DNA from: an uncultured Verrucomicrobiae bacterium
Lineage (GTDB): Bacteria > Verrucomicrobiota > Verrucomicrobiia > Opitutales > Opitutaceae
Direction of reading: 5' to 3'
Length of the DNA: 64,000 nucleotides
Assembly (NCBI GenBank): GCA_963800005.1
Contig: CAWCZH010000006.1
Location: 1,690,226-1,754,225, forward strand
How positions within the stretch are numbered: the stretch's first letter is position 1; each line of letters opens with the position of its first letter. Below are positions 3,093 to 60,833 of the stretch, in pieces. The notes below the pieces were generated by a model, which saw only the letters and a list, made by a program, of their open reading frames with translations, made no database searches and was not told where the DNA came from. The translations under genes were made by a program, and so were the position numbers.

Positions 3093-3197
3093 AATGTCCC
3101 ATGAGGGGCGTCGCGTGCTCGCCAGCTATATAGCACTATATAGACTACGGTGCGCATCCCGTCTCGATTCTCGGTGCCGCGGAACTGCTGCCGATAT

Positions 3198-13840: not shown

Positions 13841-16800
13841 CTAATGCGCTGGTTGCGGCTCGGGTCCGGGCCCGCCGGCGGGCGCGGGGGCAGGCGGCTT
13901 TTTCTCGTCGTTCTCGTGAAGCTCTTCCTCGAGCTCGCGATCGAGATCGACCGGCGCTTTCTGCCTGAGCCAGGAATACATTACAGGGACGAAGATCACG
14001 GTCGCAATCGTGGCGACGAGCAACCCGCCAATCACGGCGCGGCCGAGCGGCGCGTTCTGCTCGCCACCCTCTCCAAGCCCGAGCGCCATCGGCGCCATGC
14101 CGATGATCATGGCCAGCGCCGTCATGATCACCGGACGCAGCCGCACGTGTCCCGCGGAAAGCGCCGCAGCCCGTGCATCCTTGCCGTCGCGACGCTCATC
14201 GTTCGCAAAGGTCACGAGCAGGATCGAGTTGGAGGTCGCGACGCCCACGCTCATGATTGCGCCCATCAGCGCCGGCACGCTGATCGTCGTTCGTGTAAGA
14301 AACAGCGCCCAGACGATTCCGCAGAGGGCGCCCGGCAGCGCCATGATGATGACGAACGGGTCCATCCACGATTGGAAGTTCACGGCCATGAGAGCATATA
14401 CCAGCACGATCGCGAAAATCAGTCCCAGGCCGAGACCGAGAAATGAAGTGCTCATGCTCTTCGACTGCCCGCGCACCGTGATGAAACTTCCGCGCGTCAA
14501 CTGCTTTTCATATTTGGGGACCAGCTTGTTGACGGCCGATGCCACCGAGCCCAGGTCCTTGCGATCGACGTTCGCATATACATCGAAAACCGGTTGAATG
14601 TCATAGTGGCTGACGACCGCTTGAGTCGTCGCGCGATTCACGTGCGCCACGTTGCCGAGAACTTCGTCGACGCCCTGGCCGGGCGACGTCATTCCGATCG
14701 GGATGCGACTGACATCGTCGAGTGAGTCGACATGATATTGCGGAGCCTGGGTAGCGACGAGGTATTGCACGCCGTTTTTCGGATCTATCCAATAATTCGT
14801 CGCCGCTTGTCCCGAGCCGCTGAGGGTAATGAGCAGGTTGCTTGCGATTGCGCTCTGCGTGAGACCGAGTTGCGCGGCGCGGATCCGGTCAACGTTTACC
14901 TTAAACGACGGCGAGTTTAATATTTGGTGCACATGCACGTCCACGGCGCCGGGGATCTTCGCGATTTCCGCGGCGATCTGCTGGGCGAGTTCATAATTCT
15001 TTTCCGGGGCGCGACCGGCGACCTGGAGGTCGATCGGAGCCGGGAGCCCGAAGTTCAGGATCTGGCTGACGATATCCGCGGATTGCGTGAAGAATGTACA
15101 TTCCGGCATCTCGCGATTCAGCCGCTCGCGCAACTGGCGCACATAGCCCCACGTCGAGTGGTGCTTTTTCTGGTTCAGTTGAACCAGGATCTCGCCATCA
15201 GCGGCGCTGATCGTCGCGGTGTCGCTATAAGCCAGGTTGATGCCACTGGTGGGCAGGCCTATATTATCTATAACGGTGTCGAGCTCCGCGGCCGGCACGA
15301 CCTCGTGGATGATATTTTCGACGCGAGTGAAATAGCGCTCCGTCTCCTCGACGCGCGTCCCTGCCGGAGTGCGCACGTGCAAGCGGAACTGGCCGGCATC
15401 GACGAGCGGGAAGAAATCTTCACCGAGGAATGGCACGAGACACGCGGTGATCGCGACGAGCACGCCCATGCCGAGCAGCACCCAGCCGCGGTGATCAAGG
15501 CACCAGTCGAGATGGGCGCGGTGCCATTCGCGCAGTTTCTCGAAGTATTTATTAAACTTCACATGGACGCGCCAGATCCAGTCACTGTCCGGCGGTGCCT
15601 CGCCCTTGCCCTCGTCGTGACGCACCGGCTGGCCGCGCAATAGGAAATGCACGAACGTCGGCACCACCGTTCGCGAAAGGAAATAGGAAGCGAGCATCGC
15701 AAAGATCACGGCGAGGGCCAGCGGGTAGAACAGGAACTTCGCCGTGCCCTGTAGGAAGAATATAGGCACGAACACAATACAGATACAGAGTGTGGAAACG
15801 AAGGCCGGCACCGCGATCTGTTGCGCGCCGTCGAGAATCGCCTTCACCAATGGCTTTTTCTCCCCACCCGTCAGGTTGCGCGTTATATTCTCCACCTCGA
15901 CCGTCGCGTCATCGACGAGAATGCCCACCGCGAGCGCGAGCCCGCCCAGCGTCATCGCGTTGATGGTCTGCTGCGCGGCGTAGAGGCAGATGATCGAAAA
16001 GAAAATCGAGAGTGGAATCGAGACGGCGACGACCACGGTGTTTCGCCAAGTGCCGAGAAACAGCAGGATCATCAGCGCGGTGAGCGTCGCCGCGATCAGT
16101 GCCTCGCGGATCACGCCATTCAGCGAAGCACGAACATACACGCTCTGGTCGAAGCGCGGCTCGAGGTCGAGGGCCGGCGGGACGCTCGTCTTGATACGAG
16201 GCAGGGCGGCGCGCACGCGCTGGATGATGTCAAGCGTTGAGGCACGCCCGCTCTTCAATATACTCAGCAACGCGCCTCGCCGGCCGTCCTGCCGCACGAT
16301 GCTCGTCTGCGGCGCATAACCGTCGCGCACGTGGGCGACGTCCCCGATCCGCACGGTCGCGCCGTTGATCACGCGGATGGGGAGTTCATTGAACTCCTCG
16401 ACCGCGTCCGGGCTGCTGTTGAGCAGGAAATTATATTCGCGCGATCCGATCTTCGCCGTGCCGGTGGGCAGCGTGAGGTTTTGCGCGTTGATCGCGTTGC
16501 TGACGTCGGAGGGCGTGAGCCCTTTGGACTCGAGTGCGTGTAGGTCGATGTCGACCATGATCTGCCGCGATTTGCCGCCGCTCGGGAGCGGGATCGACGC
16601 GCCCTGCACGGTGGCGAGCTGCACGCGCACGAAGTTGCTGCCCAGATCATATAACGTTTGCTCGGGTAATGTTTTGCTCGCGAGCCCGAGCTGCAGGACG
16701 GGCACATTTGACGCGCTGAAACGGATCACGAGCGGCGGCGTGGTCCCGGGCGGCATCGAGCGGATGACTGTCTGGTTCGAGGCGGTGACCTGGGCGATCG

Positions 16801-17113
16801 CAGATTCTATATTGGCGTTTTCCTGCAGAAAGACCTTGATCACGCCGATGCCCGGGTAGGACTGCGACTCGATGTGCTCGATGTCGTTCACGGTCGTGGT
16901 CATGACGCGTTCGCTGATGGTGACCATGCGTCGTTCCATTTCCTCGGGGGCGAGGCCGGTATAGGTCCAGACGACGCAGACGACCGGTATATCAACCGAG
17001 GGGAAGATGTCCTTGGCCATCCGCAGGTAGGCCAGCACCCCGAGGCAGAGGATGAGGGCGGCCATCACGGTGAAGGTGTAGGGACGACGAAGGGCGAGGC
17101 GAACAATCCACAT
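13841..17113 (-). CDS. RND efflux transporter permease (HAE1/AcrB-like)
   Basis: 1090 aa with an N-terminus (MWIVRLALRRPYTFTVMAALI...) and twelve-TM / two-large-loop architecture diagnostic of AcrB/CzcA family pumps. Confidence 0.95.
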   Translation of the reverse strand: MWIVRLALRRPYTFTVMAALILCLGVLAYLRMAKDIFPSVDIPVVCVVWTYTGLAPEEMERRMVTISERVMTTTVNDIEHIESQSYPGIGVIKVFLQENANIESAIAQVTASNQTVIRSMPPGTTPPLVIRFSASNVPVLQLGLASKTLPEQTLYDLGSNFVRVQLATVQGASIPLPSGGKSRQIMVDIDLHALESKGLTPSDVSNAINAQNLTLPTGTAKIGSREYNFLLNSSPDAVEEFNELPIRVINGATVRIGDVAHVRDGYAPQTSIVRQDGRRGALLSILKSGRASTLDIIQRVRAALPRIKTSVPPALDLEPRFDQSVYVRASLNGVIREALIAATLTALMILLFLGTWRNTVVVAVSIPLSIFFSIICLYAAQQTINAMTLGGLALAVGILVDDATVEVENITRNLTGGEKKPLVKAILDGAQQIAVPAFVSTLCICIVFVPIFFLQGTAKFLFYPLALAVIFAMLASYFLSRTVVPTFVHFLLRGQPVRHDEGKGEAPPDSDWIWRVHVKFNKYFEKLREWHRAHLDWCLDHRGWVLLGMGVLVAITACLVPFLGEDFFPLVDAGQFRLHVRTPAGTRVEETERYFTRVENIIHEVVPAAELDTVIDNIGLPTSGINLAYSDTATISAADGEILVQLNQKKHHSTWGYVRQLRERLNREMPECTFFTQSADIVSQILNFGLPAPIDLQVAGRAPEKNYELAQQIAAEIAKIPGAVDVHVHQILNSPSFKVNVDRIRAAQLGLTQSAIASNLLITLSGSGQAATNYWIDPKNGVQYLVATQAPQYHVDSLDDVSRIPIGMTSPGQGVDEVLGNVAHVNRATTQAVVSHYDIQPVFDVYANVDRKDLGSVASAVNKLVPKYEKQLTRGSFITVRGQSKSMSTSFLGLGLGLIFAIVLVYALMAVNFQSWMDPFVIIMALPGALCGIVWALFLTRTTISVPALMGAIMSVGVATSNSILLVTFANDERRDGKDARAAALSAGHVRLRPVIMTALAMIIGMAPMALGLGEGGEQNAPLGRAVIGGLLVATIATVIFVPVMYSWLRQKAPVDLDRELEEELHENDEKKPPAPAPAGGPGPEPQPAH

Positions 17114-17200
17114 GGCTCGAGAGATCCGGGAAGCGGGTTCTGGTTACGTATATAGCGAGTATATAAAGACGTGAAATATATAGCGTTTCGCGTCGACGGA

Positions 17201-18607
17201 TCACCAACCGCCGCCGACGGCCTTGATCAGGAGGGCGGTGGCGACGAGGCGCTGGGCGCGGACCTGGGTGGCGAGCAGTTGGTTTTGCAGAAGCGAGCGC
17301 TGCGCATCGATGACCTCGAGGTAACTCACGATCCCGCTACGGTACCGGGTGGTGGCGAGATCGAGCAGGCGTTGGGAGCCTTGGACCGCGCGGTCGATGC
17401 CGCCGACCTGTTGGCCGAGGAAGCGAAGATCGGACAACCCGCTCTCGACTTCTTGAAACGCGACGAGGACCTGCTCGCGATAATTCGCGAGCGCCTCGTC
17501 GTAGTTGGCGCGAGCGATTTCATAATTCGCGCGCAGCAAGCCACCGCGAAATATCGGCACGTCGACCATGGTGCCGAGTCCCCATTCGCGACTGCTCCAT
17601 TGCAGCAGCTTGGAAAGGTCCGCGCTGTTCAACCCGGCGAATCCGGTCAAACTGATCGAGGGGAAAAACGCGGCCTTGGCGGCGCCGACTTGCGCGTTCA
17701 CGGAGGCGAGCGTGCGCTCGGCGGCAGCGACATCCGGGCGGCGTTCGAGCAACTCGCTCGGGAGGCCGACGGGCACAGGTGGCGGCTCGAGGTCGAGCGG
17801 TTTTATATATATAGCGAAGTTCTCCGGCGTCTGGCCCACGAGGACGGCGAGCGCGTGAATTTGGTCGGCGAGGTTCTGGCTCACGGCCGCCTCCGAGTTG
17901 CGCACGGTCTCGAGCTGGACCTCCGCTTCATATACGTCGACGTCGCTATTCACTCCGCCGGCGCGCAGCTTGCGCACGAGATCGAGCGCGTCCTGCAGCA
18001 GCGCCACGTTCTGTTCATATTGCACTTCCTGAAGTCGGAGGGAGCGCAGCGTGAAATAGTTCTGCGCGACGGCGGACTGCAGCGTGAGCAGAACGTTTTG
18101 ATATAGGTCGCCCTGCGCTTGGGCGGCGGCGCGGGCGCTTTCCAAGGCCCGGCGAGCGCGGCCGAAGAGGTCGAGTTCATAGCTGAGTTGCAGCGGAAGA
18201 TCGAACGTGTTGGCTGTATAGGGAACGCGGGGCGCACCGGGCGCGGTGGAGCGGTTGGCGGAATAGTGTTCGCGATTCCCGGTGCCATTGATCGAGAGAT
18301 TGGGCAGAAGGGCGGCCCGGCTGACGTCCGCGAGGGCGAGCGCGGCATCGAAGCGGGCGAGGGCGGCGCGCAAAGTGGGGCTCGCTTGCGCAGCGCGCTG
18401 CTCGAGATCATCCAGCACGGGGTCGCCGAATACCTTCCACCACTCGGGCTTGGGCAAGGCGTCGTGCGGGTCGGCCAGCTTCCACGGCGCGGCCTCGGTA
18501 TATACTCGAGGCACGTCCATGGCAGGTCGGTGATAATCCGGCCCGACGGTGCATCCGGCGACAAACAGCGCCGGCAGCCACGCGAAACGACAGAGCTTCA
18601 TCGGCAC
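17201..18607 (-). CDS. Efflux outer-membrane factor lipoprotein (NodT/TolC family)
   Basis: Lipoprotein signal (…LFVAGCTVGPDY…) and tandem TolC-like repeats. Its gene order with the RND pump points to the same role. Confidence 0.9.
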   Translation of the reverse strand: MPMKLCRFAWLPALFVAGCTVGPDYHRPAMDVPRVYTEAAPWKLADPHDALPKPEWWKVFGDPVLDDLEQRAAQASPTLRAALARFDAALALADVSRAALLPNLSINGTGNREHYSANRSTAPGAPRVPYTANTFDLPLQLSYELDLFGRARRALESARAAAQAQGDLYQNVLLTLQSAVAQNYFTLRSLRLQEVQYEQNVALLQDALDLVRKLRAGGVNSDVDVYEAEVQLETVRNSEAAVSQNLADQIHALAVLVGQTPENFAIYIKPLDLEPPPVPVGLPSELLERRPDVAAAERTLASVNAQVGAAKAAFFPSISLTGFAGLNSADLSKLLQWSSREWGLGTMVDVPIFRGGLLRANYEIARANYDEALANYREQVLVAFQEVESGLSDLRFLGQQVGGIDRAVQGSQRLLDLATTRYRSGIVSYLEVIDAQRSLLQNQLLATQVRAQRLVATALLIKAVGGGW

Positions 18608-18620
18608 CTTCGCGCCACGC

Positions 18621-19850
18621 TCAGTGGCCGCCCTGCTTTCCTTGCGCCGGTTTCTTGTTCTGCTCGCCCGACTGCTTTTGTTGTTTTTCCTGCTCCTGCT
18701 TTTCCTGTTGCTCCTCGATTTTTTCGTCGCGCGGCTGGACGAGCAACCCGTCGGTCAGCGCGTCGTTTGGGTTCGCGACGATCCGGGTGCCGGCTTTCAG
18801 GCCCTCGAGGATTTCCATTTGCGTGCCGAAATCGCGGCCGATGCGCACACGCGCAAGGCGTATATGATTCGCGTCATCGATAGTCGCCACGATCGCGCCT
18901 TCGCTGCGGATCATCGTCGCGATCGACGGCACGATGATGGCCGGCTGGTCGGGCACCAGGGAGAAGTGCACCTCGCAGAACATGCCCGGAAACAGCTCGT
19001 TGTGGGGATTGGGAATCTCTATATCAACGAGGAGGGTGCGCGAGGTCGGGTCGACCGCGCCGGCGAACCGGACCACGTGCCCGGAGAAGGGGCGATTTTG
19101 AAATTCCGGCACGGTGACCTGCACCTCCAGGCCGGACTGGATCGACCGGATATACGTTTGCGGGACATTTGCGTAGACGCGGAGGGGATCGACTTGGGAG
19201 ACATGATATATCTCTGCGCCGGTTCCGGAATTGATGAGCGTGCCGATTTGCGCGTTTCGGGCGGAAATGACGCCGTCGTAGGGGGCCGTGACCTTCTGAT
19301 ATTCCTGGAGTTTCACGAACCGCTCGACGTTGGCCTCGGCTGCCTTGGTGTCGGCCTGGCGTGCCTCGTAGTCCGCCTCCTTCGTGTCGACGTCCTGTTG
19401 CGGGACGGCGTGTTGTTCCCCGAGCGCGTGCCAGCGTTGAGCGCTGATCTGGGCGAGCTTCAGGTTGGCCTCGGTTTGAGCGAGTGCGGCGCGGGCCTGG
19501 TTGAGTTCCTGGTCCAGATCCGGGGTTTCGATACTGGCGAGTACGTCGCCGGCTCGGACATGATCGCCTATATCAAAGAACCATTTGCGAATAAATCCCG
19601 TGGTCCGGGCGTATATAGGCGTGTCCTGATACGCGAGCAGCGCGGCGGGGAGCGTCAGCTGCGTCGGGGCGTTCCCGAGTTGCGCGACAACGAAGTTAAC
19701 GACGGGCGCCGTGGGGCCCTGTTGCGCCGCGGCCTTCGACTTATGGTGCGAGTGGACAAGCAGAAGTATCGCGCCCGCAACGACGACGGCGACAGCGGCC
19801 AAGATGAGGAGGCGCGAGCGCTTCATCACGAGAGGCCGCCATTGCGCCAC
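18621..19850 (-). CDS. RND efflux membrane fusion protein (periplasmic adaptor, HlyD-like)
   Basis: N-terminal TM anchor, a coiled-coil hairpin region, and beta-barrel/lipoyl-like segments. There is a low-complexity QEKQ tail. It is the first gene of the MFP-OMF-RND operon. Confidence 0.9.
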   Translation of the reverse strand: MAQWRPLVMKRSRLLILAAVAVVVAGAILLLVHSHHKSKAAAQQGPTAPVVNFVVAQLGNAPTQLTLPAALLAYQDTPIYARTTGFIRKWFFDIGDHVRAGDVLASIETPDLDQELNQARAALAQTEANLKLAQISAQRWHALGEQHAVPQQDVDTKEADYEARQADTKAAEANVERFVKLQEYQKVTAPYDGVISARNAQIGTLINSGTGAEIYHVSQVDPLRVYANVPQTYIRSIQSGLEVQVTVPEFQNRPFSGHVVRFAGAVDPTSRTLLVDIEIPNPHNELFPGMFCEVHFSLVPDQPAIIVPSIATMIRSEGAIVATIDDANHIRLARVRIGRDFGTQMEILEGLKAGTRIVANPNDALTDGLLVQPRDEKIEEQQEKQEQEKQQKQSGEQNKKPAQGKQGGH

Positions 19851-33437: not shown

Positions 33438-33480
33438 GCGATCGGCAAAGAAAAAGGGGCAGGCCGCGTGGCCTGCCCCG
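33438..33480 (-). terminator. Rho-independent terminator downstream of the M14 gene
   Basis: Minus-strand stem GGGGCAGGCC-acgc-GGCCTGCCCC (10-bp perfect stem) followed by TTTTTCTTT. Confidence 0.55.
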
Positions 33481-33507: not shown

Positions 33508-36398
33508 CTATAGCGTTGTCGGCGTGGCGGACCCGTAGTAAAGCCCGTTGAAGAACAGCTTGAACGTGCCGTGCGTTGTGGCGCGGAAGGTCGCCTCGAG
33601 GCCGAGGAGGACGAGCTTGCCGCGGCCGATGCTCGCCTCGGCGGCGATGCTGCCCTGGTCGAGGTACTGCTGGCCGAGCGCCCAGCCGCTATATAGAGGC
33701 GTCTTGCTGTCGAACCACGCGAGCCGGTTGACCTTCACCGGCGAGTTCGTGATCGGCGCGAAGACCGGGCTGCTGTCGAAGAAGATATATCCTTCCGAGG
33801 GCATGCCGTAGGCGACGGGATTCTGGTTGTCGAACTTCGCGCGCAGGATCGAGCCGGGCACGTAGAACTTGTCGCTCGGCAGCGGCTTCACCGTGCCGTC
33901 GGGAGCGGTTTCCACGAGGTGATTCTTGACCGGCAGGCCCATCTCCTGGCCCACCACCGCGGAAGAACCGAGCGCCAGGATCGTGCCGCCTTCATCGACG
34001 AACGTCTTCAGCGGCGGGACCGTCTTCGCCTCGCTGACGCCGCCGAGCATCGAGCGGTATTCCTCGGGGATCGACGTGGCCTGCGGGCTGTAGCTGGCAC
34101 CACCCGACCCGGCGAAGCCAACGCCGTAGTTGGTCGTCATCACGCGTTGCACCCGGGCGGCGTCGGACGAGCGCGCACCCGCGGCGAACGACTGACTGGG
34201 GAACACGAGGACATCGAAGCTGGTCTTCAGGTTGCCCGCGTCGAGAACTTGCGGATATATCATCTCGAAGGGGAATTCATATTGCTCGAAGATCCAGCGC
34301 ACCCAGCCCGACGGCATCAGGCCGCCGTAAAGATCGAGCAGGCCGATGCGCACGGGCTTGAGCTTATACGCTTCGCCGGTGGGCTTCTGCGTCACGCCGT
34401 ACGCGGCAACGCCCAATTCCTTGGCGGCTTTTTCGAGGATCGGCTGGGCCGCGGGAGATGCCGGGATCCAGAGCGACCCGGTGCCGAGCCCGATGCCACC
34501 GACCGTCTGCTCGTCCTTGAGCCAATATACATCGGCGCCCGCCTTGAGCAGGCGGTTGGTGAGAATGATCGAATCGTTTTCCTTGTGGCTAACGAGGTAG
34601 CCGACGGGATTCGCCGGGCCTTGCACACTGGCCACGGGCGGTGCCTCGAGATCCGAGGTGACCTTGGCGAACGGCCCGTCGAAGCCATCGAGGATCGAGT
34701 CGTAGGTCACGCCCATCTGCTTCGCGAGCGTCCAGCCCGCGATATCATACGGCGGGATCGGCGGGCCGCCGGGATACGCGAAATCGTTCGGGTGATCCTG
34801 TGGTTGGAACATATCCATCACGAACGGCCGAAACGCCTGCGCGGCCTTCACTATATATGAACCGGCGGGGTAGGATTTGCCGGCGACGGTGAACGCCGCG
34901 GTGGCCTTGTGGATGGTGATGCCGTTCTTCATGAGCGCGTTGATGAATTTCACCGCGGTCGGAAAATCGGGCTGGTCGGCCGGAATGATATAGCCGCGCG
35001 GATCGCGCTCGGCCGGATCCTGGAGCACGCTCTCGTAGAAGCGCGTGGGCACGACGGCGGCGCTCAGTCCGCCGGCGTTCATGACGCCGCTGACGGTGAG
35101 ATCGCGGCGCAGGCCCGGGACCTCGGGTTCGGCGGCGTTGACCAGCGCGTTGATGCGCTTCGGGGAAATCGTCCAGTTGTCATGACTGCCGCGTTCGATC
35201 GAATTCTTGCCCATGCGATATATATTCAGCAGCAGGAGCTCGCGATTGCGGGAAGCGTAATCCATGACCGCGCGATTCATCTCGATCGAGTAGTCGACCG
35301 ACTGGCGGTAATGCCAGGTCTGCGGCTTGATCGGCATCGGCCAGTCGCCCTGCGGCAATTGTTTATTGGGCGCGAGGCCGATCGCCATCGGGTTGGGTCC
35401 GCCGATGATTTCGGTCAGGATGCCGATCTGATTGTGGAAATACGGGGTCGGTGCGGCCGCCGCCGTTCCACCACGTCGAATAATTGGCGGCGGAGCGCAT
35501 CGCGGAGCCGGCCATGCCGTGCGAGATGAGACGCTCGTGAATCGCCATCGCCGACGCGGTCGATGCCGATCGGGATCAGCGGATCGAGGTTATAGTTGAA
35601 CGGATCGCGGAATGGCGGAATGAACACCACCTGGCCCTCGGGGCCCGGTCTGGTGGTGATTATACATGATCTGCGGGAACCACTCCCGGTAGAGGATGCG
35701 GTTGATATTAATCGTCTCCGGCATGCTTGCCATGAAGAAGTCGCGGTTGTTGTCATGGCCTATATACTTTTGATACATCCGCGGCACGCCGACGAACGAG
35801 CGGTTGGTCTCGTCGGGCTCGCGCATATACCAATTCGCGATGAGCTCGACGCCGTCGGGGTTCGCATTGGCCGCGAGCAGCACGACGTCGTCGCAGGAAA
35901 CGCATCGTCTCCGGGTCGGTGCGGCTGATCATCTGGTACACCCATTCGCTGAGCGACTGGGAATGTTCGCTCTCCGAGGAGTGCATGCCGCCGTCGATCC
36001 ACACGACGGCCTTGCCTTCGGCGGCGAGGGCCTGAGCCTGATTTTCGTCCACGCCCTCGGCCAGCGCGAGTTTCTTGCGCGATTTCGCGCAGGCGGTCGA
36101 GCTTCGCGAGGTTGGCCGGCGAGCTGATGATCGCCATATATTGAGGACGTCCCTCGGCGGAGTTGCCGATGCTCACGAGCTTCATGCGGTCGGACTCGGT
36201 CGCCCATTTTTTCCACATCGCCGTGATCTGAGTATAGTTGGCCATGTGGTAATCGGCTCCGATATCGAAGCCGATGATGGCCTTGGGGGGCGTGATCTTG
36301 GGCGGCGTGGGAGCCGCGTTCGCCCAGAAGGGCAGGGTGAGTGCGAACAAGCCGGCCACGAGCCGGAGCGAGGATCGTCGAATCATATAGTGTGCCAT
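33508..36398 (-). pseudogene. M14 family zinc carboxypeptidase, disrupted by multiple frameshifts
   Basis: The N-terminal signal and M14 start (MIRRSSLRLVAGLFALTLPFWANA…NYTQITAMW…) are in one frame. The next M14 blocks (…VVWIDGGMHSSESEHSQ…, …NPDGVELIANWYM…YQKYIGHDNNRDF…, …FNYNLDPLIPIG…) fall in three other minus-strand frames between about 35.4 and 36.1 kb. The long 626-aa C-terminal frame (33508..35388) is intact. Confidence 0.7.
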
Positions 36399-49968: not shown

Positions 49969-51352
49969 CGTGAATCGCGCTCTTGCTCACGGCGAGACCG
50001 GCCTCCTTGACCGCCTCGCTCATGGTGGGATGCGCATGAATGGTGCGGCCGAGGTCCTCGGCGCTGCCGCCATACTCCATATGCGTAACGACCTCGCTGA
50101 TCAGCTCGCCCGCGCCGTGGCCGAGAATCTGCGCTCCGAGAATCCGGTCCGTCGTGGCGTCCGCGATGATTTTAACATAGCCGTCCATCGTGTCATTGGC
50201 GATGGCGCGGCCGTTGGCGGCGAAGTTGAACTTGCCGATTTTCACGGCGCGGCCGGCGGCCTTGGCGGCATCCTCGCCGAGGCCGACGCTGGCGACCTCC
50301 GGCTCGGTATATACAATGGCCGGAACGAGTTCCCAGTTCACGTGGCCCGCTTTGCCGACGATCCACTCCGCGACGGCGATGCCATCCTCTTCGGCTTTAT
50401 GCGCGAGCATCGGGCCCGCGACGACGTCACCGATGGCCCAGATTCCGGGTACGTTGGTGCGCAGGTGGTCGTCGACCTTGACGCGTTTCCGTTCGTCGAG
50501 CGCGACGCCGGCGCGGTCGAGTCCGAGACCGTCGTAGAAGCAGCGGCGGCCGACGGCGACGAGGACCTTCTCGGCGGGGAATTCGAGTTTCTGGCCCTCG
50601 CGCTCGGCGGTGAGTTTTCCGTTAGCGAAGCCGGTGACCTTGGCGCCCGTTTCGATTTTCAGGCCCTGCTTGACGAGCAGGCGCGTGAACGCGCGAACAA
50701 TGTCGTCATCATAGAGCGCTACGATCTTGGGGAGAAATTCCACGACGGTGACGTCGCTGCCGAGGCGCGACCAGACGGAGCCGAGTTCGAGGCCGATCGC
50801 GCCGCCGCCGACGACCACGAGTTTTTTGGGCACTTCGGAAAACGCGATGGCCTCGTCGCTGGAGACGATGGTGCGGCCGTCGAACTTCATAAAGGGCAGC
50901 TCGACGGGTACGGAGCCGGTGGCGATGACGATGTTCTTCGCGGTGGAGGTGATCGTTTCGGCGGCGGTCTTAATCTCGACCGTGTTGCTGCTGCTGAACG
51001 CGGCGGTGCCGCTATATACTGTGATCTGCCGGGCCTTCGCGAGTTGGGCGACGCCACCGACGAGCTTGGTGACGACGTCGTCCTTGCGTTTCAGGAGGGT
51101 GGGCAGGTCGACGGCAACGGATCCGATTTTGATCCCGTGGGCGGCCGCGTGTTTTTGGGCGAACAGCAGTTGTTCGCTCGAGTGCAGGAGGGCTTTGCTA
51201 GGGATGCAGCCGACGTTGAGGCACGTGCCACCGAGCGTGGCGCGTTTCTCGACGAGCGCGACCTTAAGCCCGAGTTGGGCGGCGCGAAACGCGCAGACAT
51301 AGCCGCCGGGGCCGGCGCCGATAACGATAAGGTCGAAGGTCGTGGTGGGCAT
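49961..51352 (-). CDS. lpdA: Dihydrolipoyl dehydrogenase (E3)
   Basis: FAD motif IVIGAGPGGY. The redox disulfide region GGTCLNVGCIPSK is present. 463 aa. Confidence 0.95.
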   Translation of the reverse strand: MPTTTFDLIVIGAGPGGYVCAFRAAQLGLKVALVEKRATLGGTCLNVGCIPSKALLHSSEQLLFAQKHAAAHGIKIGSVAVDLPTLLKRKDDVVTKLVGGVAQLAKARQITVYSGTAAFSSSNTVEIKTAAETITSTAKNIVIATGSVPVELPFMKFDGRTIVSSDEAIAFSEVPKKLVVVGGGAIGLELGSVWSRLGSDVTVVEFLPKIVALYDDDIVRAFTRLLVKQGLKIETGAKVTGFANGKLTAEREGQKLEFPAEKVLVAVGRRCFYDGLGLDRAGVALDERKRVKVDDHLRTNVPGIWAIGDVVAGPMLAHKAEEDGIAVAEWIVGKAGHVNWELVPAIVYTEPEVASVGLGEDAAKAAGRAVKIGKFNFAANGRAIANDTMDGYVKIIADATTDRILGAQILGHGAGELISEVVTHMEYGGSAEDLGRTIHAHPTMSEAVKEAGLAVSKSAIHAI

Positions 51353-51498
51353 GGGAAGGGAACCGGTCTATATACTATATAATATAACGCAGAGGGGCGG
51401 GAACGGCGCGGCTCGTGGGCATTGGCCGCGGGTGGGTCGGCGGCGCCAGCCCGGGACGAGCCCGGACCGGCGCCGCGCGTATCCAGAAAACGGATACG

Positions 51499-52737
51499 TC
51501 AGACGCCCAGGACGAGGCGGGTGGGATCCTCGATCGCCTGCTTGACCTTCACGAGGAAGGTTACGGCCTGTTTGCCGTCGACCAGGCGATGGTCGTAGCT
51601 GAGGGCGAGGTACATCATCGGGCGGATGACGACTTGGCCGTTCACGGCGACGGGGCGATCGTTGATGGAATGCATGCCGAGAATCGCGCTCTGCGGCGGA
51701 TTTATAATCGGGGTGGAGAGCAGCGAGCCGAACGTGCCGCCGTTGGTGATCGTGAACACGCCGCCTTCGAGATCGGCGAGGGTGATTTTGCCATCGCGCG
51801 CGCGGGTGGCGGCGTCGGCGATTTTTTTCTCAATCGCGGCCATCGGGAGCGCATCACAGTCGCGGATGACCGGGACCATCAGGCCCTTCTCGGTGGAGAC
51901 CGCCACGCCGAGATCAAAATAGTTATTTTCTATAATCGTATCACCATCGAGCTGGGCGTTCAGTGCGGGAACTTCCTTGAGCGCGTAAACGACCGCCTTC
52001 GCAAAGAACGACATGAAGCCGAGCTTGATGCCGTTCTTCTTCACAAACTCATCCTGGAATTTCGCCCGAAGGCCCATTACGCCCGACATATCGACCTCGT
52101 TGAAGGTCGTGAGCATGGCAGCTTCGTGTTGAGCGGACACTAACCTCTGGGCGATTTTCTGGCGCAGCGGCGACATCTTGCGACGTACCTGGCGAGCGCT
52201 GCTGGAGGCAGCCGGGGCCGGGGCGGCGGGTTTCGTGGTGGGGGCGGGTGCCGGGGTGGCTGCCTTGGCTTCCGTCGGCGCTGGCGCAGCGGCGGCCGCA
52301 GCGGGCGTGGCGGTGAGCATGTCACCTTTCGTGACGCGTCCGCCCTTGCCCGAGCCGGCCACCGTCGTGGGATCGATGCCGGTTTCGCCGGCGAGGCGGC
52401 GCACGGCTGGAGATTGCGCGTCGGCTTTGGCGCCGGCAGGAGCGGAGGGTGCGGTGGCGCCGGGTTCGGGCGTACCGGCGGGCGCAGACGCGAGGGCGGC
52501 GGCGTCCGAGTCGATTGTGGCGACAACCTCGCCGATTTTCACCTCGGCGCCAACGGCGGCTTTCAGAGTGATCTTGCCTGCGGCTTCGGCGGTGCCTTCC
52601 GAGGTGATCTTGTCGGTCTCGAGTTCAAACAGCGGCTGGTCCTTTTTGACGACATCGCCGTCCTTGACGTGCCATTTGGCGAGAACGCCGGAATTGATCG
52701 ATTCGCCCATCGGCGGAATTTTGACTTCGAGAGGCAT
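51499..52737 (-). CDS. sucB: Dihydrolipoamide succinyltransferase (E2 of 2-oxoglutarate dehydrogenase)
   Basis: Lipoyl domain (…ELETDKIT…), an Ala/Pro-rich linker, an E3-binding region, and a catalytic domain with the DHRxxDG motif ([10 protein letters not shown]). Confidence 0.9.
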
Positions 52738-52773
52738 GGCGCGGGGAGTTTGTATATAGAAAGGACGGCAGGA

Positions 52774-55524
52774 TCAGAGTGTAAACGCGGCTTGGAGAAA
52801 CGCGGCGAGTTCCATCCGGTGGAGGGAGAGGGCGCCGACGGCCGGCGAGGCAGCAGCGTCGCGGCCGGCGTAAACCGGTGCAAAGCCAAAAACCTCCGAG
52901 AGATGCGGGGCGATAAACGACCACGCTCCCATGTTCTGGGGTTCTTCCTGGCACCAGAGCACGCGGGCGCCTTTATATTGCGTGGCGAGTTCGCCCAGGC
53001 GCTGGCGGTGCAGCGGGTAGAGTTGCTCGATGCGGACGATCGCGGTGTCGGTGACCTTGTTTTTGTCCCGATATTCGCAGAGGTCGTAATATACTTTTCC
53101 GCTGCAGAAGATCAGGCGCTGCGTGCGGGCCGGGCGGGCCGCGTCATCGATAATCTCCTGGAAGCCGCCCGTGGTGAGTTCGTCCATGCGCGAGGTCGCC
53201 GCCGGATTGCGCAGCAGCGACTTGGGCGACATGACGAAGAGCGGTTTACGGAACGAGCGCTTCATCTGCCGTCGCAGCGCGTGGAAGAAGTTCGCCGGGG
53301 TCGTGATATTGGCGACCTGTATATTATCCTCGGCGCAGGACTGCAGATAACGCTCGAGGCGGGCCGACGAATGCTCGGGGCCCTGTCCTTCGTAGCCGTG
53401 CGGGAGCAGCAGCACGATGCCGCTGGTACGCTGCCATTTCGATTCGCCGCTGACAATGAACTGGTCGATGACGACTTGCGCGCCGTTCGCGAAGTCGCCG
53501 AACTGCGCCTCCCAGATGCAAAGCATCTGGGGATAATCGAGGGAGTAGCCGTAGTCGAAGCCGAGGACGGCCACTTCGGAGAGAAGCGAGTTATATACAC
53601 AGAACCGCGCCTGTTTCTCGTCGAGGTTGAGCAGCGGAACATATTTCGCGCGCGTGTCGGAATCATATAGCACCGCGTGGCGATGGCTGAAGGTGCCGCG
53701 CTCGGAATCCTGTCCGCTGAGGCGGACGGGCGTGCCCTCGATGAGGAGCGTGCCGTAGGCGAGGGCCTCGGCGAATCCCCAGTCGACCGGTCCACCCTCC
53801 TTGTGGGCTTGGACGCGCGCCTCGATGAAGCGCTTGATCTTCGGGTTGAGTTTGAAATCGGCGGGGATGCGGGTCAGGCCCGCGATGACGCGGTCGAGCA
53901 CCGCGGGCTCGACGCCGGTGGGCACCGGGGCGTGTTCATATATCGGCTGGAACTCGGCGGTCGAACCCTTGAACCGATCCTCCGGCCGCTCCTGCGCGCG
54001 CTTGGCAGATTTCTTCGCCTCGTTCTCCTTGGCGCGGGTGAGGTTGGCTTCGAGTGCGGCGAGATATTCCGCCTTGATCGCCTCGCCCTCGGCGGCGGTG
54101 AGCGTGTTTTCGCCGACGAATTTTTCGGTGAGAATCGCGGAGACCTGCGCGTGCGCGGCGATCTTTTTATATAGTGTCGGCTGGGTGAAAGCGGGCTCGT
54201 CGCTCTCGTTGTGCCCGTGCTTCCGATAGCAATACATATCGATTACTATATCGCGCTGGAATTTTTCGCGGAACTCGAGCGAGAGCTGCGCGACGAGGCA
54301 CACTGCCTCGGCGTCATCGCCATTCACATGAAACACCGGCGCCTCGATCATCTTCGCGACGTCCGTGCAGTAACGCGTCGAACGCGCATCCTTGGGATCG
54401 GTCGTGAAACCGATCTGATTGTTGATGACGAAATGGACGGTGCCACCCGTGCGATAGCCGGGGAGCTGCGAAAAATTCAGCGTCTCCGCGACCACGCCCT
54501 GGCCCGCGAACGCGGCGTCGCCATGCACGAGAAACGGCAGCACGCGACGGCGTTCGGTGTCGCCGCGGATCCGCTGGCGCGCCCGGGCTTTGCCCTCGAC
54601 GACGGGATTGACGATCTCGAGGTGGGACGGGTTCGCGGCGAGGCGGACCTCGACCTTTTTTCCTGAAGTGGTCTCGAGCGCGGCTTCGTACCCGAGATGA
54701 TATTTCACATCGCCGTCGCCGGCGACGGCATCGGGCACATAATTTTCGGAGAACTGCTCGAAGAGAAGTTCGAACGGTTTCCGCATGATCGACGTAAGTA
54801 CATTGAGCCGGCCGCGGTGGGCCATGCCGATGACGAGTTCCTCGACGCCGACGTCCGGGCTGTGCTGTATAATCGAGTCGAGCGCGGCGATAAACGTTTC
54901 ACCGCCCTCGAGGGAGAAACGTTTTTGTCCGACGTATTTTGTATGAAGAAATTTCTCGAAGAGCTCGGCTTTATGAACGCGTCGGAGGATGCGGATTTTT
55001 TGCTCCTTCGAAAAATTCGGCTGGTTGTCGGTGGATTCCATGCGGGACTGCAGCCAGTCGCGCGCATCGAGATCCTGCATGTGGAGGTACTCGACGCCAA
55101 TGTGGCCGCAGTAGGTGCGCTCGAGTGAAGATAATATATCCGAGAGCCGCATTTGGCCGCCGTTCTTGAAATGGCCGATGTCGAACGATTCCTGGAGGTC
55201 GGATTCTGACAGTCCGAAAGCCTCAGGCGCGAGCCGCGGGTTGCGCGGCGGCGCTTCGCCAAGTGGGTCGAGGTGAGCCTGAAGGTGACCATGGGCGCGG
55301 TAGGCGTTGATCAGGCGGTGGACCTGCGCCTGCTTTTGGCTATCGAGGATCGCGGGGCCGCTGCTGGCCACGGCGGCGACGGATACGCCGTTGTTGCCGA
55401 GGGTGAAGCCTTGGAAGAAGGCGCGCCAGGTGGGATCGACGGAGTCGGGATTGTCGAGCCACGAGCGATGCATGGCTTCGATCACATCCGAGTTGGCTCG
55501 GGTGGGCAGCGTGAGAGCGTTCAT
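52774..55524 (-). CDS. sucA: 2-oxoglutarate dehydrogenase E1 component
   Basis: 916 aa with ThDP-dependent E1o architecture and extensive conserved E1o blocks. It sits directly upstream of sucB and lpdA on the same strand. Confidence 0.95.
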   Translation of the reverse strand: MNALTLPTRANSDVIEAMHRSWLDNPDSVDPTWRAFFQGFTLGNNGVSVAAVASSGPAILDSQKQAQVHRLINAYRAHGHLQAHLDPLGEAPPRNPRLAPEAFGLSESDLQESFDIGHFKNGGQMRLSDILSSLERTYCGHIGVEYLHMQDLDARDWLQSRMESTDNQPNFSKEQKIRILRRVHKAELFEKFLHTKYVGQKRFSLEGGETFIAALDSIIQHSPDVGVEELVIGMAHRGRLNVLTSIMRKPFELLFEQFSENYVPDAVAGDGDVKYHLGYEAALETTSGKKVEVRLAANPSHLEIVNPVVEGKARARQRIRGDTERRRVLPFLVHGDAAFAGQGVVAETLNFSQLPGYRTGGTVHFVINNQIGFTTDPKDARSTRYCTDVAKMIEAPVFHVNGDDAEAVCLVAQLSLEFREKFQRDIVIDMYCYRKHGHNESDEPAFTQPTLYKKIAAHAQVSAILTEKFVGENTLTAAEGEAIKAEYLAALEANLTRAKENEAKKSAKRAQERPEDRFKGSTAEFQPIYEHAPVPTGVEPAVLDRVIAGLTRIPADFKLNPKIKRFIEARVQAHKEGGPVDWGFAEALAYGTLLIEGTPVRLSGQDSERGTFSHRHAVLYDSDTRAKYVPLLNLDEKQARFCVYNSLLSEVAVLGFDYGYSLDYPQMLCIWEAQFGDFANGAQVVIDQFIVSGESKWQRTSGIVLLLPHGYEGQGPEHSSARLERYLQSCAEDNIQVANITTPANFFHALRRQMKRSFRKPLFVMSPKSLLRNPAATSRMDELTTGGFQEIIDDAARPARTQRLIFCSGKVYYDLCEYRDKNKVTDTAIVRIEQLYPLHRQRLGELATQYKGARVLWCQEEPQNMGAWSFIAPHLSEVFGFAPVYAGRDAAASPAVGALSLHRMELAAFLQAAFTL

Positions 55525-57678: not shown

Positions 57679-58896
57679 TTATTTCGTCGAAGGGGTCGCG
57701 CCCGCGGGGGCAGCTTCGGACGGGGCAGGCTTCGCGGCGCTGGCGGCCGGAGTTGTGCCGGGCGCCGATGTGGGAGCGGGAAGGGGCTCAAAGAGATCTT
57801 CGGATTTCTGCGGTAACGCCGTGAACGTATATTCAGGAATCTGATACGCCCGTTTCGTCATGATCTGGTTGATCGGAGCCGCTTGGTCGCTCGAGTGGAT
57901 TGAAACGAAAACCGGGCCCGCCGGAACGGTCTCGAATTCCGGCGTGAGAGGATTTACGGTCGGTGCGCCGGGCGGCTTTTCCGCTTCGGCTTTCGAGGAG
58001 CTCTCGGCGATTGTCGCGCTCGAGCCGAGCGCGGCGGGACCTGAAGTCCCGGGTGCAGGCGGCTTCAACTTTTTCTCTTCGGGACGGCGCCCCAGCGAGA
58101 CTATATAACTTTTGTTGTCAAAGGTCCCGAGCGTGAATGTCCGTTCCGCGCTTTTCGCCGCGACGGCGTCGGGCGCTGCGGGGTCGGTCGCCTCGGAAAA
58201 GCGCAGGCCACCCAACGATGTGAGCAGGGTGTTCACTTTGTCGCTGGCGAGGCGCTGGCCGGCAGGGACCGGCGTAGCGGTCCAAGGGGCATCTTTGCTG
58301 GCCCGCGAAACCGTCACGTTACCGCCCGGTAGCGGTATCACGATTTTGGATACATCGTCGGGCTTGAGATTGAGGAGCTGGGTGTCGGCCCAGTTTTTCG
58401 GGTCGGGATCGAGAAATATATTAAGCGCGGCGAGATACGCCTTGGTTTCATTCCCGTAGCGAATAAACCGGCCGCCGGTTTCCGGCGATTTCCCGAGGGC
58501 GACGGACCAAAGGGGTTTATTGGCGGAGTCGCGCAGCTCGATGGAGCTGCCCTTGAATTCCAGGCGGGCGAGGCGCTCGGGATTGCTGGTCACGACGCGC
58601 GTGATTTTGGCCTCGCTCAAATCGCCGGTGAGGCGGGCGAGTTTTTGAAAATCCGCGGGCAAGTCGAAGAAGTTGGTCACCTGCCATGCGCCTGACGGGT
58701 TGCGCGTGAGCTCGACGGATTTACCGTCGTCATTTAATATAACTTTCGCGGCCGGACCGATGAGTGAGGCGTCGAGCACCGGGTGCCCAACGCGCGCGTC
58801 AGCGGCAGCCGGCGCGCTCGGGCGCCGAGCGATATATACAACGACCGACAGCGCCAGGAGAACGGCGACGGTGACGACAAGGGTCTTCAGTTTCAT
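57679..58896 (-). CDS. DUF4340-domain protein (partner of GldG-type ABC exporter)
   Basis: N-terminal TM anchor from MKLKTLVV, a periplasmic domain, and a Pro/Ala/Ser-rich C-terminal tail. Its start overlaps the end of the gldG-like gene by 4 bp. Confidence 0.7.
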   Translation of the reverse strand: MKLKTLVVTVAVLLALSVVVYIARRPSAPAAADARVGHPVLDASLIGPAAKVILNDDGKSVELTRNPSGAWQVTNFFDLPADFQKLARLTGDLSEAKITRVVTSNPERLARLEFKGSSIELRDSANKPLWSVALGKSPETGGRFIRYGNETKAYLAALNIFLDPDPKNWADTQLLNLKPDDVSKIVIPLPGGNVTVSRASKDAPWTATPVPAGQRLASDKVNTLLTSLGGLRFSEATDPAAPDAVAAKSAERTFTLGTFDNKSYIVSLGRRPEEKKLKPPAPGTSGPAALGSSATIAESSSKAEAEKPPGAPTVNPLTPEFETVPAGPVFVSIHSSDQAAPINQIMTKRAYQIPEYTFTALPQKSEDLFEPLPAPTSAPGTTPAASAAKPAPSEAAPAGATPSTK

Positions 58897-60821
58897 GACG
58901 CGGCGGAAGCGGCGGCCGGGGTGCGGTCCTGCCGGCGCGCCCGGAAGAACCACCAGGCGAACAAGAGGACGAGCAGCGGTGAGGTGACGAGATTGATCAG
59001 CAGCAGTCGGTTCTCGAGGGCGTCGATGCCCTCGCGCAGCGATCGGCGGATCGCGCGGCGCTCGCTGCGGATCTGGGCGGATTGCTTTTGGAAGTCCTCG
59101 ATGGCCTTCGTCATCTCCGGGGTTGCGACGAGGCGGTTGCCCTCGGTTCGCTTGCCTTGGAGTTCGCTGAGCTTCGCCTGGACACTTTGAAGTTCGGTTT
59201 CGAGCGTCGCCAGTTTCTGTTCATAGCGCTCGCTCGCTGAAGCCTCCATTTTTCGCACGACCGTGAATTCTCTCTGCGACGAACCCTTGCCGCGGATCGA
59301 AATCAGGTCCTGCGAGCCGGCCAGGAAATCCAGAGAGTTGGACGCGAAGGCCAGATTGTCGTTGATCGGCTCGGCTGCGCTTTGGCCGAGAAAATTATAT
59401 TTCCGCACACTATAATCATCAAAGAGCCAATCCGTGTCGGCGACGATCAGGAGGGTCGACGTTCCACTCGACTCATGCAACGAGGGCGACGCAGCGGGCT
59501 TTGGCGCGGGCGTCGGCGTCGGAGATTTCGCATCGGCGTCCGCAGGTTTCTCGTCGGCTGGGACGCCGCCCGGGAAAGAGCTCGGGAATTTTCCGGTGAT
59601 CAGCGCGGCGACGGTGTGCTTGCCCGAGGGGGTGATTTGGCGCGTGACTTCATCAGGTTGGGCGAACTGGAGGGCGGACGATAATATATCGCCCGAGCGC
59701 GCGGAGGATTCGATCAGTGGCGTGAACACCTGTTTGCTGCCCGGCTTGAGCGCGAGACTGCCGGCTTCGATGAAGACAGCGCTCGAAAGCTGTGCGGTCG
59801 GCAGCGCCTTCGGGTTGAACGCATCCTGCGCGAACTTGATCCAAATCGGATAACGCGCGGGGCCGGCTTGCGTCGACACTTGCGCCGCGTTGTCGAGGTC
59901 GCCGAGAACTTTCGAGGAATCATATAGGATTCCCCAGCCGTGAAGCAGGGCTGGCAGGTCGCTGCTGACGTTCGGCTGTGGCCCGCCGAACATGGCCTGC
60001 TGGCCGCCTTGGCGCTTAAAGTATTGGGAGGAGGGATCGACGCAAAGGAACACGGGCTTGCCGCCGAGGAGAAATTGATCGATCGCATACTGCAGTTTCG
60101 GCGAGAGATTTTCCGGATGGACGATCGCCAGTACACTCAGATTGGGCGGCAGTTCGGTGGCGGAGGCTTCGACGGGGACGATTTCATATGTCTGGGCCCA
60201 TTCCTCCGCGACGAACTGTCCTGGCTGCGACTGGCGTGCCATGGGCATCATGGGATTTTCCGGTGGGCCGCCCTGCAGTGGCAGGCTCGTGATCAGGCCC
60301 AGCTTCGGCTTCGTCAACTCCTGCACTGTATATAGCAGTTTCGACAAATCATATTCGAGGAACGGCTCGCGTTGCGGGGTGAACGCGTCGACGACCTTCT
60401 GCTGGTCGGCTTGGACGGCGACGAGGCCGAAGTAAAATGGATCGGCGCCGGAGGTGATCGACTGGCCGGTCAGGCCGGCGGCAGTCGCACGCTCCTCTTC
60501 GGGCGTGTCGGGCTGCGGATTCGTGACCGTCAGCGTGATCTTCCCGTGCGCGGCGCGCACATATTGTCGCAGCATTTCCTGCACGCGGGCGGCGTAATTC
60601 TTATAGGTAATCGGCAGGCTCGGGGCGTCCTTCGAGAAAAAGAGTTCGAGCGCGATCGGCTCCTCGATCTTCGAGAGCATCGCCTTGGTGCCGGGCGAGA
60701 GGGAGTATATAGAGTCCGCCGAGAGGTCGAGCCGCGCGGGGATCGCCGACGCGAGATAGTTGATCAGTACGAGTCCCACCAGCAGCAGGACAATGGCGAG
60801 AAATTTGCTTCCGGGTTTCAT
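58893..60821 (-). CDS. GldG-like ABC-2 transporter auxiliary component
   Basis: 642 aa with an N-terminal TM, a large periplasmic domain, and a C-terminal TM (…LLINLVTSPLLVLLFAWWFF…). The architecture matches the 'ABC-type uncharacterized transport system' family. Confidence 0.8.
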   Translation of the reverse strand: MKPGSKFLAIVLLLVGLVLINYLASAIPARLDLSADSIYSLSPGTKAMLSKIEEPIALELFFSKDAPSLPITYKNYAARVQEMLRQYVRAAHGKITLTVTNPQPDTPEEERATAAGLTGQSITSGADPFYFGLVAVQADQQKVVDAFTPQREPFLEYDLSKLLYTVQELTKPKLGLITSLPLQGGPPENPMMPMARQSQPGQFVAEEWAQTYEIVPVEASATELPPNLSVLAIVHPENLSPKLQYAIDQFLLGGKPVFLCVDPSSQYFKRQGGQQAMFGGPQPNVSSDLPALLHGWGILYDSSKVLGDLDNAAQVSTQAGPARYPIWIKFAQDAFNPKALPTAQLSSAVFIEAGSLALKPGSKQVFTPLIESSARSGDILSSALQFAQPDEVTRQITPSGKHTVAALITGKFPSSFPGGVPADEKPADADAKSPTPTPAPKPAASPSLHESSGTSTLLIVADTDWLFDDYSVRKYNFLGQSAAEPINDNLAFASNSLDFLAGSQDLISIRGKGSSQREFTVVRKMEASASERYEQKLATLETELQSVQAKLSELQGKRTEGNRLVATPEMTKAIEDFQKQSAQIRSERRAIRRSLREGIDALENRLLLINLVTSPLLVLLFAWWFFRARRQDRTPAAASAAS

Positions 60822-60833
60822 GGGGGCTCGGCG

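Follow-up and report, generated by a model that had tools for sequence, protein, structure and literature searches.

Analysis of a 64,000-nt stretch of DNA from an uncultured Verrucomicrobiae bacterium of the family Opitutaceae (contig CAWCZH010000006.1, positions 1,690,226 to 1,754,225; hereafter, the window) revealed that a gene for an M14 family metallopeptidase on the (−) strand is interrupted, as assembled, by exactly five frameshifts. Judging from the pattern and sequence context of the extra bases, we infer a technical cause: these five frameshifts are very probably errors in the deposited consensus and not mutations of the organism. The main evidence that discriminates such an artefact from gene decay is a second patch of lesions of the same type, which lies 28 kb away and affects other genes. 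Beneath the errors, the gene most likely encodes an ordinary, intact, secreted M14 metallopeptidase of ~961 amino acids (aa), of a type often found in Opitutaceae and Acidobacteriota. The features of the M14 locus are as follows.

33508..36398, (−) strand: M14 family metallopeptidase gene as assembled, 2891 nt, i.e., 962 codons plus 5 extra bases
33508..35388, (−) strand: open reading frame (ORF) of 626 aa in the ORF listing, the intact C-terminal two-thirds of the M14 gene
36315..36398, (−) strand: predicted Sec signal peptide of the M14 protein, MAHYMIRRSSLRLVAGLFALTLPFWANA followed by A, read by eye
33446..33479, (−) strand: intrinsic-terminator-like hairpin and T-run 3′ of the M14 stop codon, read from the sequence

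The ORF listing, a reading of the (−) strand and a frameshift-aware protein-to-DNA alignment agree on six coding segments distributed over three (−) strand frames. For the alignment, intact orthologues from Opitutae and Bryobacterales metagenome-assembled genome loci (L001, L003 and L008) were compared with the M14 DNA by dynamic programming, and all three demanded the same five frameshifts (at ~36074, ~35893, ~35640–35648, ~35549 and ~35449), each of them (5/5) corresponding to +1 base in the DNA. The codon phase (codon start mod 3) accordingly runs 2, 1, 0, 2, 1, 0 along the gene, and a codon-usage frame plot, trained on long ORFs of the window, independently recovered the six segments. As assembled, then, the gene lacks the continuous ORF of an M14 peptidase, since five one-base insertions break it into six segments, and the broken frame is probably an artefact. 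All of the shifts fall within 629 bp (about 36074 to 35446), with none in the remaining 2.26 kb of the gene; by our own calculation, based on the range of five points, uniformly placed shifts would span ≤629 of 2886 bp with p ~0.009.

An earlier note on this DNA, made from the letters alone, had described at least four frameshifts in about 1 kb of the gene, with the conserved M14 blocks spread over four (−) strand frames, and had proposed that intact orthologues be aligned to place each insertion or deletion (indel). The alignment was run and places five one-base insertions, so that the lower bound of four was sound and the shifts are indeed clustered, within a shorter distance than the note had estimated. 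The four frames were a miscount, as the strand has three. The note had also regarded both ends of the gene as intact, and they are: the 626-aa C-terminal frame is preserved; the terminator (33479..33446) comprises a 10-bp stem (GGGGCAGGCC/GGCCTGCCCC) with the loop ACGC, followed by TTTTTCTTT; and the N-terminus appears Sec-like by inspection, with orthologue N-termini being similarly hydrophobic.

The individual sites were placed by trying every single-base deletion and scoring the resulting peptide against the homologue alignment, which located them to within a few bases.

Frameshift J1, 36071..36078, (−) strand: one extra base in GCGCAAGAAACTC, frame 2 to 1; the best repairs, by deletion of C36077 or G36078, give ..REIAQKLAL.. 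or ..REIAKKLAL..
Frameshift J2, 35893..35894, (−) strand: one extra base in CTG-C-GAC, frame 1 to 0; the conserved RFLDD is regained only by deleting G35894 or C35893
Frameshift J3, 35640..35648, (−) strand: one extra base in ACCGGGCCCCGAG, frame 0 to 2; repair gives NHHQTGPEGQVVF
Frameshift J4, 35548..35553, (−) strand: one extra base in GTCGGCGATGGCG, frame 2 to 1; repair gives IDRVG(M/V)AIHERL
Frameshift J5, 35443..35451, (−) strand: one extra base in CGCACCGACCCCG, frame 1 to 0; repair gives WWNGGGRT(T/A)PYFHNQ

The second patch, which the earlier note does not mention, lies at the edge of the window and may extend past it.

63390..63980, (−) strand: second patch with five (probably six) one-extra-base shifts, from the frame plot and a reading of the three frames
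62486..63604, (−) strand: rlmN (dual-specificity RNA methyltransferase), with three shifts within its first ~70 codons, frames 1 to 0 to 2 to 1
63685..64000, (−) strand: 3′ end of a 2-isopropylmalate synthase (leuA-like) gene with two or three shifts, frames (0 to) 2 to 1 to 0

Shifts were located at ~63978(?), ~63884, ~63778, ~63568, ~63456 and ~63398, five of them being certain and one probable. The two patches share the type of lesion, its density (about one per 100–125 bp) and their length (~0.6 kb). Once repaired, both affected genes of the second patch, which are housekeeping genes, yield recognizable proteins. Specifically, repaired RlmN matched the equivalog model TIGR00048 with 364 bits (cut-off, 290; profile positions 12–349 of 355) and aligned with the RlmN structure 6fz6 without gaps over all three junctions, while the repaired LeuA tail matched the C-terminus of NF002991 (positions 467–550 of 550) and Mycobacterium tuberculosis LeuA (1sr9/3fig). 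Because this patch runs from the end of the leuA-like gene through the intergenic spacer into the 5′ end of rlmN, the errors track the DNA and not a gene. The GC content of the patches is unremarkable (0.62 and 0.67), and no repeats or paralogous copies of either patch, of a kind that might account for mis-polishing, were found within the window.

The extra bases themselves are uniform. Each of the 11 is compatible with a (−) strand C, i.e., a G on the (+) strand (in the M14 gene, at 36077, 35893, 35640, 35550 and 35450), and in 9 of the 11 the extra C stands directly 5′ of GA, which on the (+) strand amounts to an extra G after TC (CTG-C-GAC, CCC-C-GAG, GG-C-GATG, AC-C-GACC, CTG-C-GAG, GG-C-GACC, TC-C-GACG, GGG-C-GAG and GA-C-GATG). 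A sign test, again our own calculation, gives p ~0.002 for ten shifts of one sign. Homopolymer extension is a possible reading at four of the five M14 sites, compared with 47% by chance, and homopolymer error as the source of all M14 shifts is ruled out by J2. The recurring extra G after TC has the look of an error tied to sequence context, and it might point to the base-caller or polisher responsible.

Removal of one base at each M14 site yields a protein of 961 aa whose only stop is the terminal one and which is colinear with intact homologues of about 950 aa. The repaired protein matched PF00246 (Peptidase_M14) with 78.4 bits (cut-off, 21.6; E = 9e-22) over profile positions 3–133 of 286. 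Thousands of full-length homologues of about 930–1000 aa exist, the closest of which, over 96–99% of the length, are P0001 (74% identity), P0002 from an Opitutaceae bacterium (72%) and P0003 from Oleiharenicola lentus (70%). The residues H139 and E142 (in H139-S-S-E142), H248 (NHHQ) and E328 (LTEIIG) are all present and invariant across 59 homologues; by likeness to carboxypeptidase A, for which these roles are established, they would be the zinc ligands and the catalytic Glu. In the assembled gene, these four residues are spread over different frame segments. The repaired protein thus resembles the ~950-aa M14 metallopeptidases of Opitutaceae and Bryobacteraceae in its signal peptide, N-terminal PF00246 domain and ~600-aa C-terminal extension, as well as in their invariant HxxE, NxHQ and LTE blocks, whereas the window gene differs from theirs in carrying five one-base insertions as assembled. 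The O. lentus gene for P0003 is an uninterrupted ORF of 959 aa, although it sits in another gene neighborhood without synteny to the window locus. From these relationships, we assign the window to an Opitutaceae-like verrucomicrobium.

Searches of NCBIfam and of PDB sequences with the M14 protein gave zero matches. No conspecific intact copy of the gene was found among 5.8 billion proteins, where the best match was 74% identical, and a search of genome contigs returned relatives of ≤62% identity only. One public entry, P0017 (626 aa), is 100% identical to the C-terminal ORF at 33508..35388 and is listed as a separate protein without a Pfam domain. Its NCBI/ENA contig, 1,867,477 bp long, encodes two intact paralogues as well, P0035 and P0039.

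We also examined the M14 patch for signs of decay, by aligning the repaired protein with the 59 homologues and counting a column as highly conserved at ≥95%. In the frameshifted stretch (residues 108–321), 68 of the 69 highly conserved columns are kept, and the sole change is conservative (I for M). Downstream of the patch, 3 of 172 such columns are changed; the rate in the patch (1/69) therefore matches that of the rest of the gene. The patch is, moreover, the region of the protein closest to its nearest relatives (79–82%). In bacteria, substitutions greatly outnumber indels, so that five indels acquired by drift should have brought many replacements in the patch, and these are not seen. Specifically, neither an excess of substitutions at conserved positions, nor in-frame stops after repair, nor a mixture of insertions and deletions, all signs of neutral decay, was found in the M14 gene.

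We favor a local error of consensus or assembly because the shifts are patchy, consist of insertions only, occur in one context, cross gene boundaries, come without substitutions and spare the other ~60 kb. Clustering by position across gene boundaries with a single type of error, as befits such a cause, is found in two ~0.6-kb patches. Under this reading, ~0.6-kb stretches of the consensus would carry about one spurious base per 100–125 bp, always as an insertion, and the remainder would be essentially indel-free. Such a stretch may have been missed by polishing, or it may be a gap-fill segment. Alternatively, the long reads over such a stretch may have been very few or all of one orientation, which would let a strand-specific systematic base-calling error survive, or the stretch may represent a strain-variable tract in which alleles of two co-assembled strains both entered the consensus.

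The megabase scale of the NCBI/ENA contig (1.87 Mb) fits a long-read metagenome assembly, which we counted in favor of an artefact. The proovframe preprint (10.1101/2021.08.23.457338) reportedly addresses indel-induced frameshift errors in long-read (meta)genome assemblies. In long-read metagenome assemblies, frameshifts induced by indels are a recognized problem (PMC9262707). The window resembles such cases in that single-base indels split conserved genes in a megabase-scale contig; however, its errors are patchy (~0.6 kb), insertion-only and mostly an extra G after TC, instead of being dispersed or tied to homopolymers. Some points weigh against a consensus error. Nanopore consensus errors are more often homopolymer deletions, and we can name no platform that has an insertion-only profile as its textbook profile. 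In addition, although a random insertion in the M14 gene would have only an 8.7% chance of a CGA reading (C or G of CGA), which gives p ~3e-4 for 4/5 sites and p ~4e-7 for 8/11, we settled on this pattern only after seeing the sites, and the placement of two shifts in the second patch is ambiguous; the p values are therefore no more than indicative.

One form that the artefact could take, which we regard as unlikely, is collapsed strain polymorphism, whereby both alleles of a synonymous wobble single-nucleotide polymorphism (SNP) would have been kept side by side (CA[A/G], CT[G/C], GG[G/C], GG[C/G] and AC[C/G] at the M14 sites). All sites of both patches can be parsed as a doubled synonymous wobble base, apart from K4, where the doublet is conservative instead (Asp/Glu), and such an origin would explain the insertion-only profile, the unchanged amino acids and, given a strain-variable tract, the patchiness. 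However, a random insertion parses in this way 60% of the time, so that p is 0.076 for 5/5 and 0.006 for 10/10 under lenient scoring. Nearly all of the doublets are G/C transversions, whereas real SNP spectra are established to be rich in transitions, and an extra C before GA provides the tighter fit.

A genuine, very recent pseudogene is a still less probable explanation. In this case, the clustered single-base insertions would really exist in the M14 gene (and, separately, in rlmN and leuA), for instance through localized error-prone repair, and no single M14 protein would be translated. The frameshifts do stand in the public assembly, where P0017 is the truncated 626-aa product, and the paralogues P0035 and P0039 on the same contig could make one copy dispensable. 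Yet neutral decay should bring several substitutions per indel, in contrast to the one changed column of 69, and the 10 to 11 shifts are without exception insertions of a single kind and context. We know of no mutational process that would place 5 insertions in 0.6 kb and leave the surroundings untouched. Both rlmN and the leuA-like gene are struck by the second patch, which crosses an intergenic spacer, and no other gene in the 64 kb is disrupted, so that signs of general genome decay are absent.

Programmed recoding, in which the extra bases would be real and skipped by five consecutive +1 ribosomal frameshifts, or removed as nucleotides at the transcript level, to give the full-length peptidase, is highly implausible. 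It would be consistent with all shifts being of the +1 type and restoring a colinear conserved protein, and with a CGA trinucleotide common to 9 of the 11 sites, which is the in-frame codon at the shift in J2, J3, K0 and K3. At five sites, however, CGA straddles two codons. The P-site codons (CAA, CTG, CCC, GGC and ACC) allow +1 re-pairing only at J3 (CCC-C) and share no slippery motif, and there is no stop codon at any of the five M14 sites. Nor are the shifts conserved, as the 59 aligned homologues and the orthologous loci L001–L004, L008, L012 and L079 are single ORFs of about 930–1000 aa. Five serial shifts would, furthermore, compound their inefficiency, and the events are limited to two 0.6-kb patches of DNA, one of which includes a non-coding spacer. 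Programmed +1 frameshifting calls for conservation in orthologues and for a slippery codon, common to the sites, that is paired with a stalling codon or stimulator; neither was found. The likeness to prfB-type frameshifting consists in the +1 shift needed to read a conserved protein; unlike prfB, the M14 gene has five sites instead of one, with neither a shared slippery or stop context nor orthologue conservation, and an equivalent cluster occurs in unrelated genes of the same window. It is similarly hard to credit that genomic extra bases are tolerated through context-specific removal or skipping of the extra C before GA (by transcript deletion or +1 decoding), such that full-length M14, RlmN and LeuA proteins would be made.

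The earlier note had left three alternatives unranked except for its doubt about programmed frameshifting, and its interpretation is upheld in part. One of the three, a patch of sequencing or assembly errors, is now favored on the basis of the shared direction and context, the second patch and the lack of excess substitutions. The absence of excess substitutions, the single direction and context, and the rlmN/leuA-like patch 28 kb away argue against the recently inactivated gene. The doubt about programmed frameshifting was well placed, given single-ORF orthologues and five sites without a common slippery motif.

The rest of the window is in good order. Approximately 40 other genes show essentially complete Pfam domain matches without frame switching (e.g., AcrB positions 1–1019 of 1021; sucA, sucB and lpd). 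Adjacent same-strand ORF pairs at 57.7–60.8, 38.9–40.3 and 28.0–29.3 kb had raised the suspicion of further frameshifts, which was dismissed because in each case the ORFs are distinct genes whose domains are complete. The intact context includes an AcrB/OEP/HlyD efflux operon at 13841–19850, as well as a sucA-sucB-lpd 2-oxoglutarate dehydrogenase cluster and an ABC-2 transporter operon with ABC_transp_aux and DUF4340 proteins, at 49961–55524 (−) and 57679–62314 (−).

A separate observation concerns the palindromic hexamer TATATA, which occurs 144 times in this window of 63% GC, compared with 1.85 times in dinucleotide shuffles, and is about 55-fold over-represented relative to base composition. 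There are 126 separate (TA)n≥3 runs with a median spacing of 382 bp (e.g., at 3127–3142, 17149–17182, 45405–45416 and 63620–63627). Intergenic DNA holds 82 of the hexamers and genes hold 62, the latter in every codon phase. When synonymous codons were shuffled within the coding regions, 4.4 ± 2.1 copies resulted, compared with 56 observed. Tyr-Ile is encoded as TATATA in 21 of 33 cases, even though ATA is a minority Ile codon, indicating that codon choice is skewed toward the motif. Four copies lie inside the M14 gene (at 33690, 34852, 35219 and 35761), and because the residues that they encode are conserved, TATATA is not a substitution artefact of base-calling. In O. lentus and in related loci of Opitutae, TATATA is all but absent. 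This hyper-abundance resembles the HIP1 phenomenon (GCGATCGC) described in cyanobacteria (PMC5861425, PMC4390886). A literature search for TATATA hyper-abundance found nothing relevant, and no link was found between the hexamer and the frameshift patches.

If the frameshifts are an artefact, genes in the deposited contig are fragmented by insertion errors, which reach about 1% in short stretches, and calls of pseudogenes or gene loss for this genome, including those of rlmN and leuA, would be wrong. P0017 would then be an assembly-error fragment that has already spread into public protein collections, and the repeated occurrence of an extra G after TC on the (+) strand, in ~0.6-kb patches, may be of use in tracking down a particular fault in an assembler or polisher. 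If, on the other hand, the insertions are real, two loci would each carry five to six clustered insertions of the same type, which would call for a new mechanism of mutation or recoding; nothing here requires one. Most likely, the frameshift cluster is not a biological feature; the M14 family in question is widespread, and the gene is one of its ordinary members.

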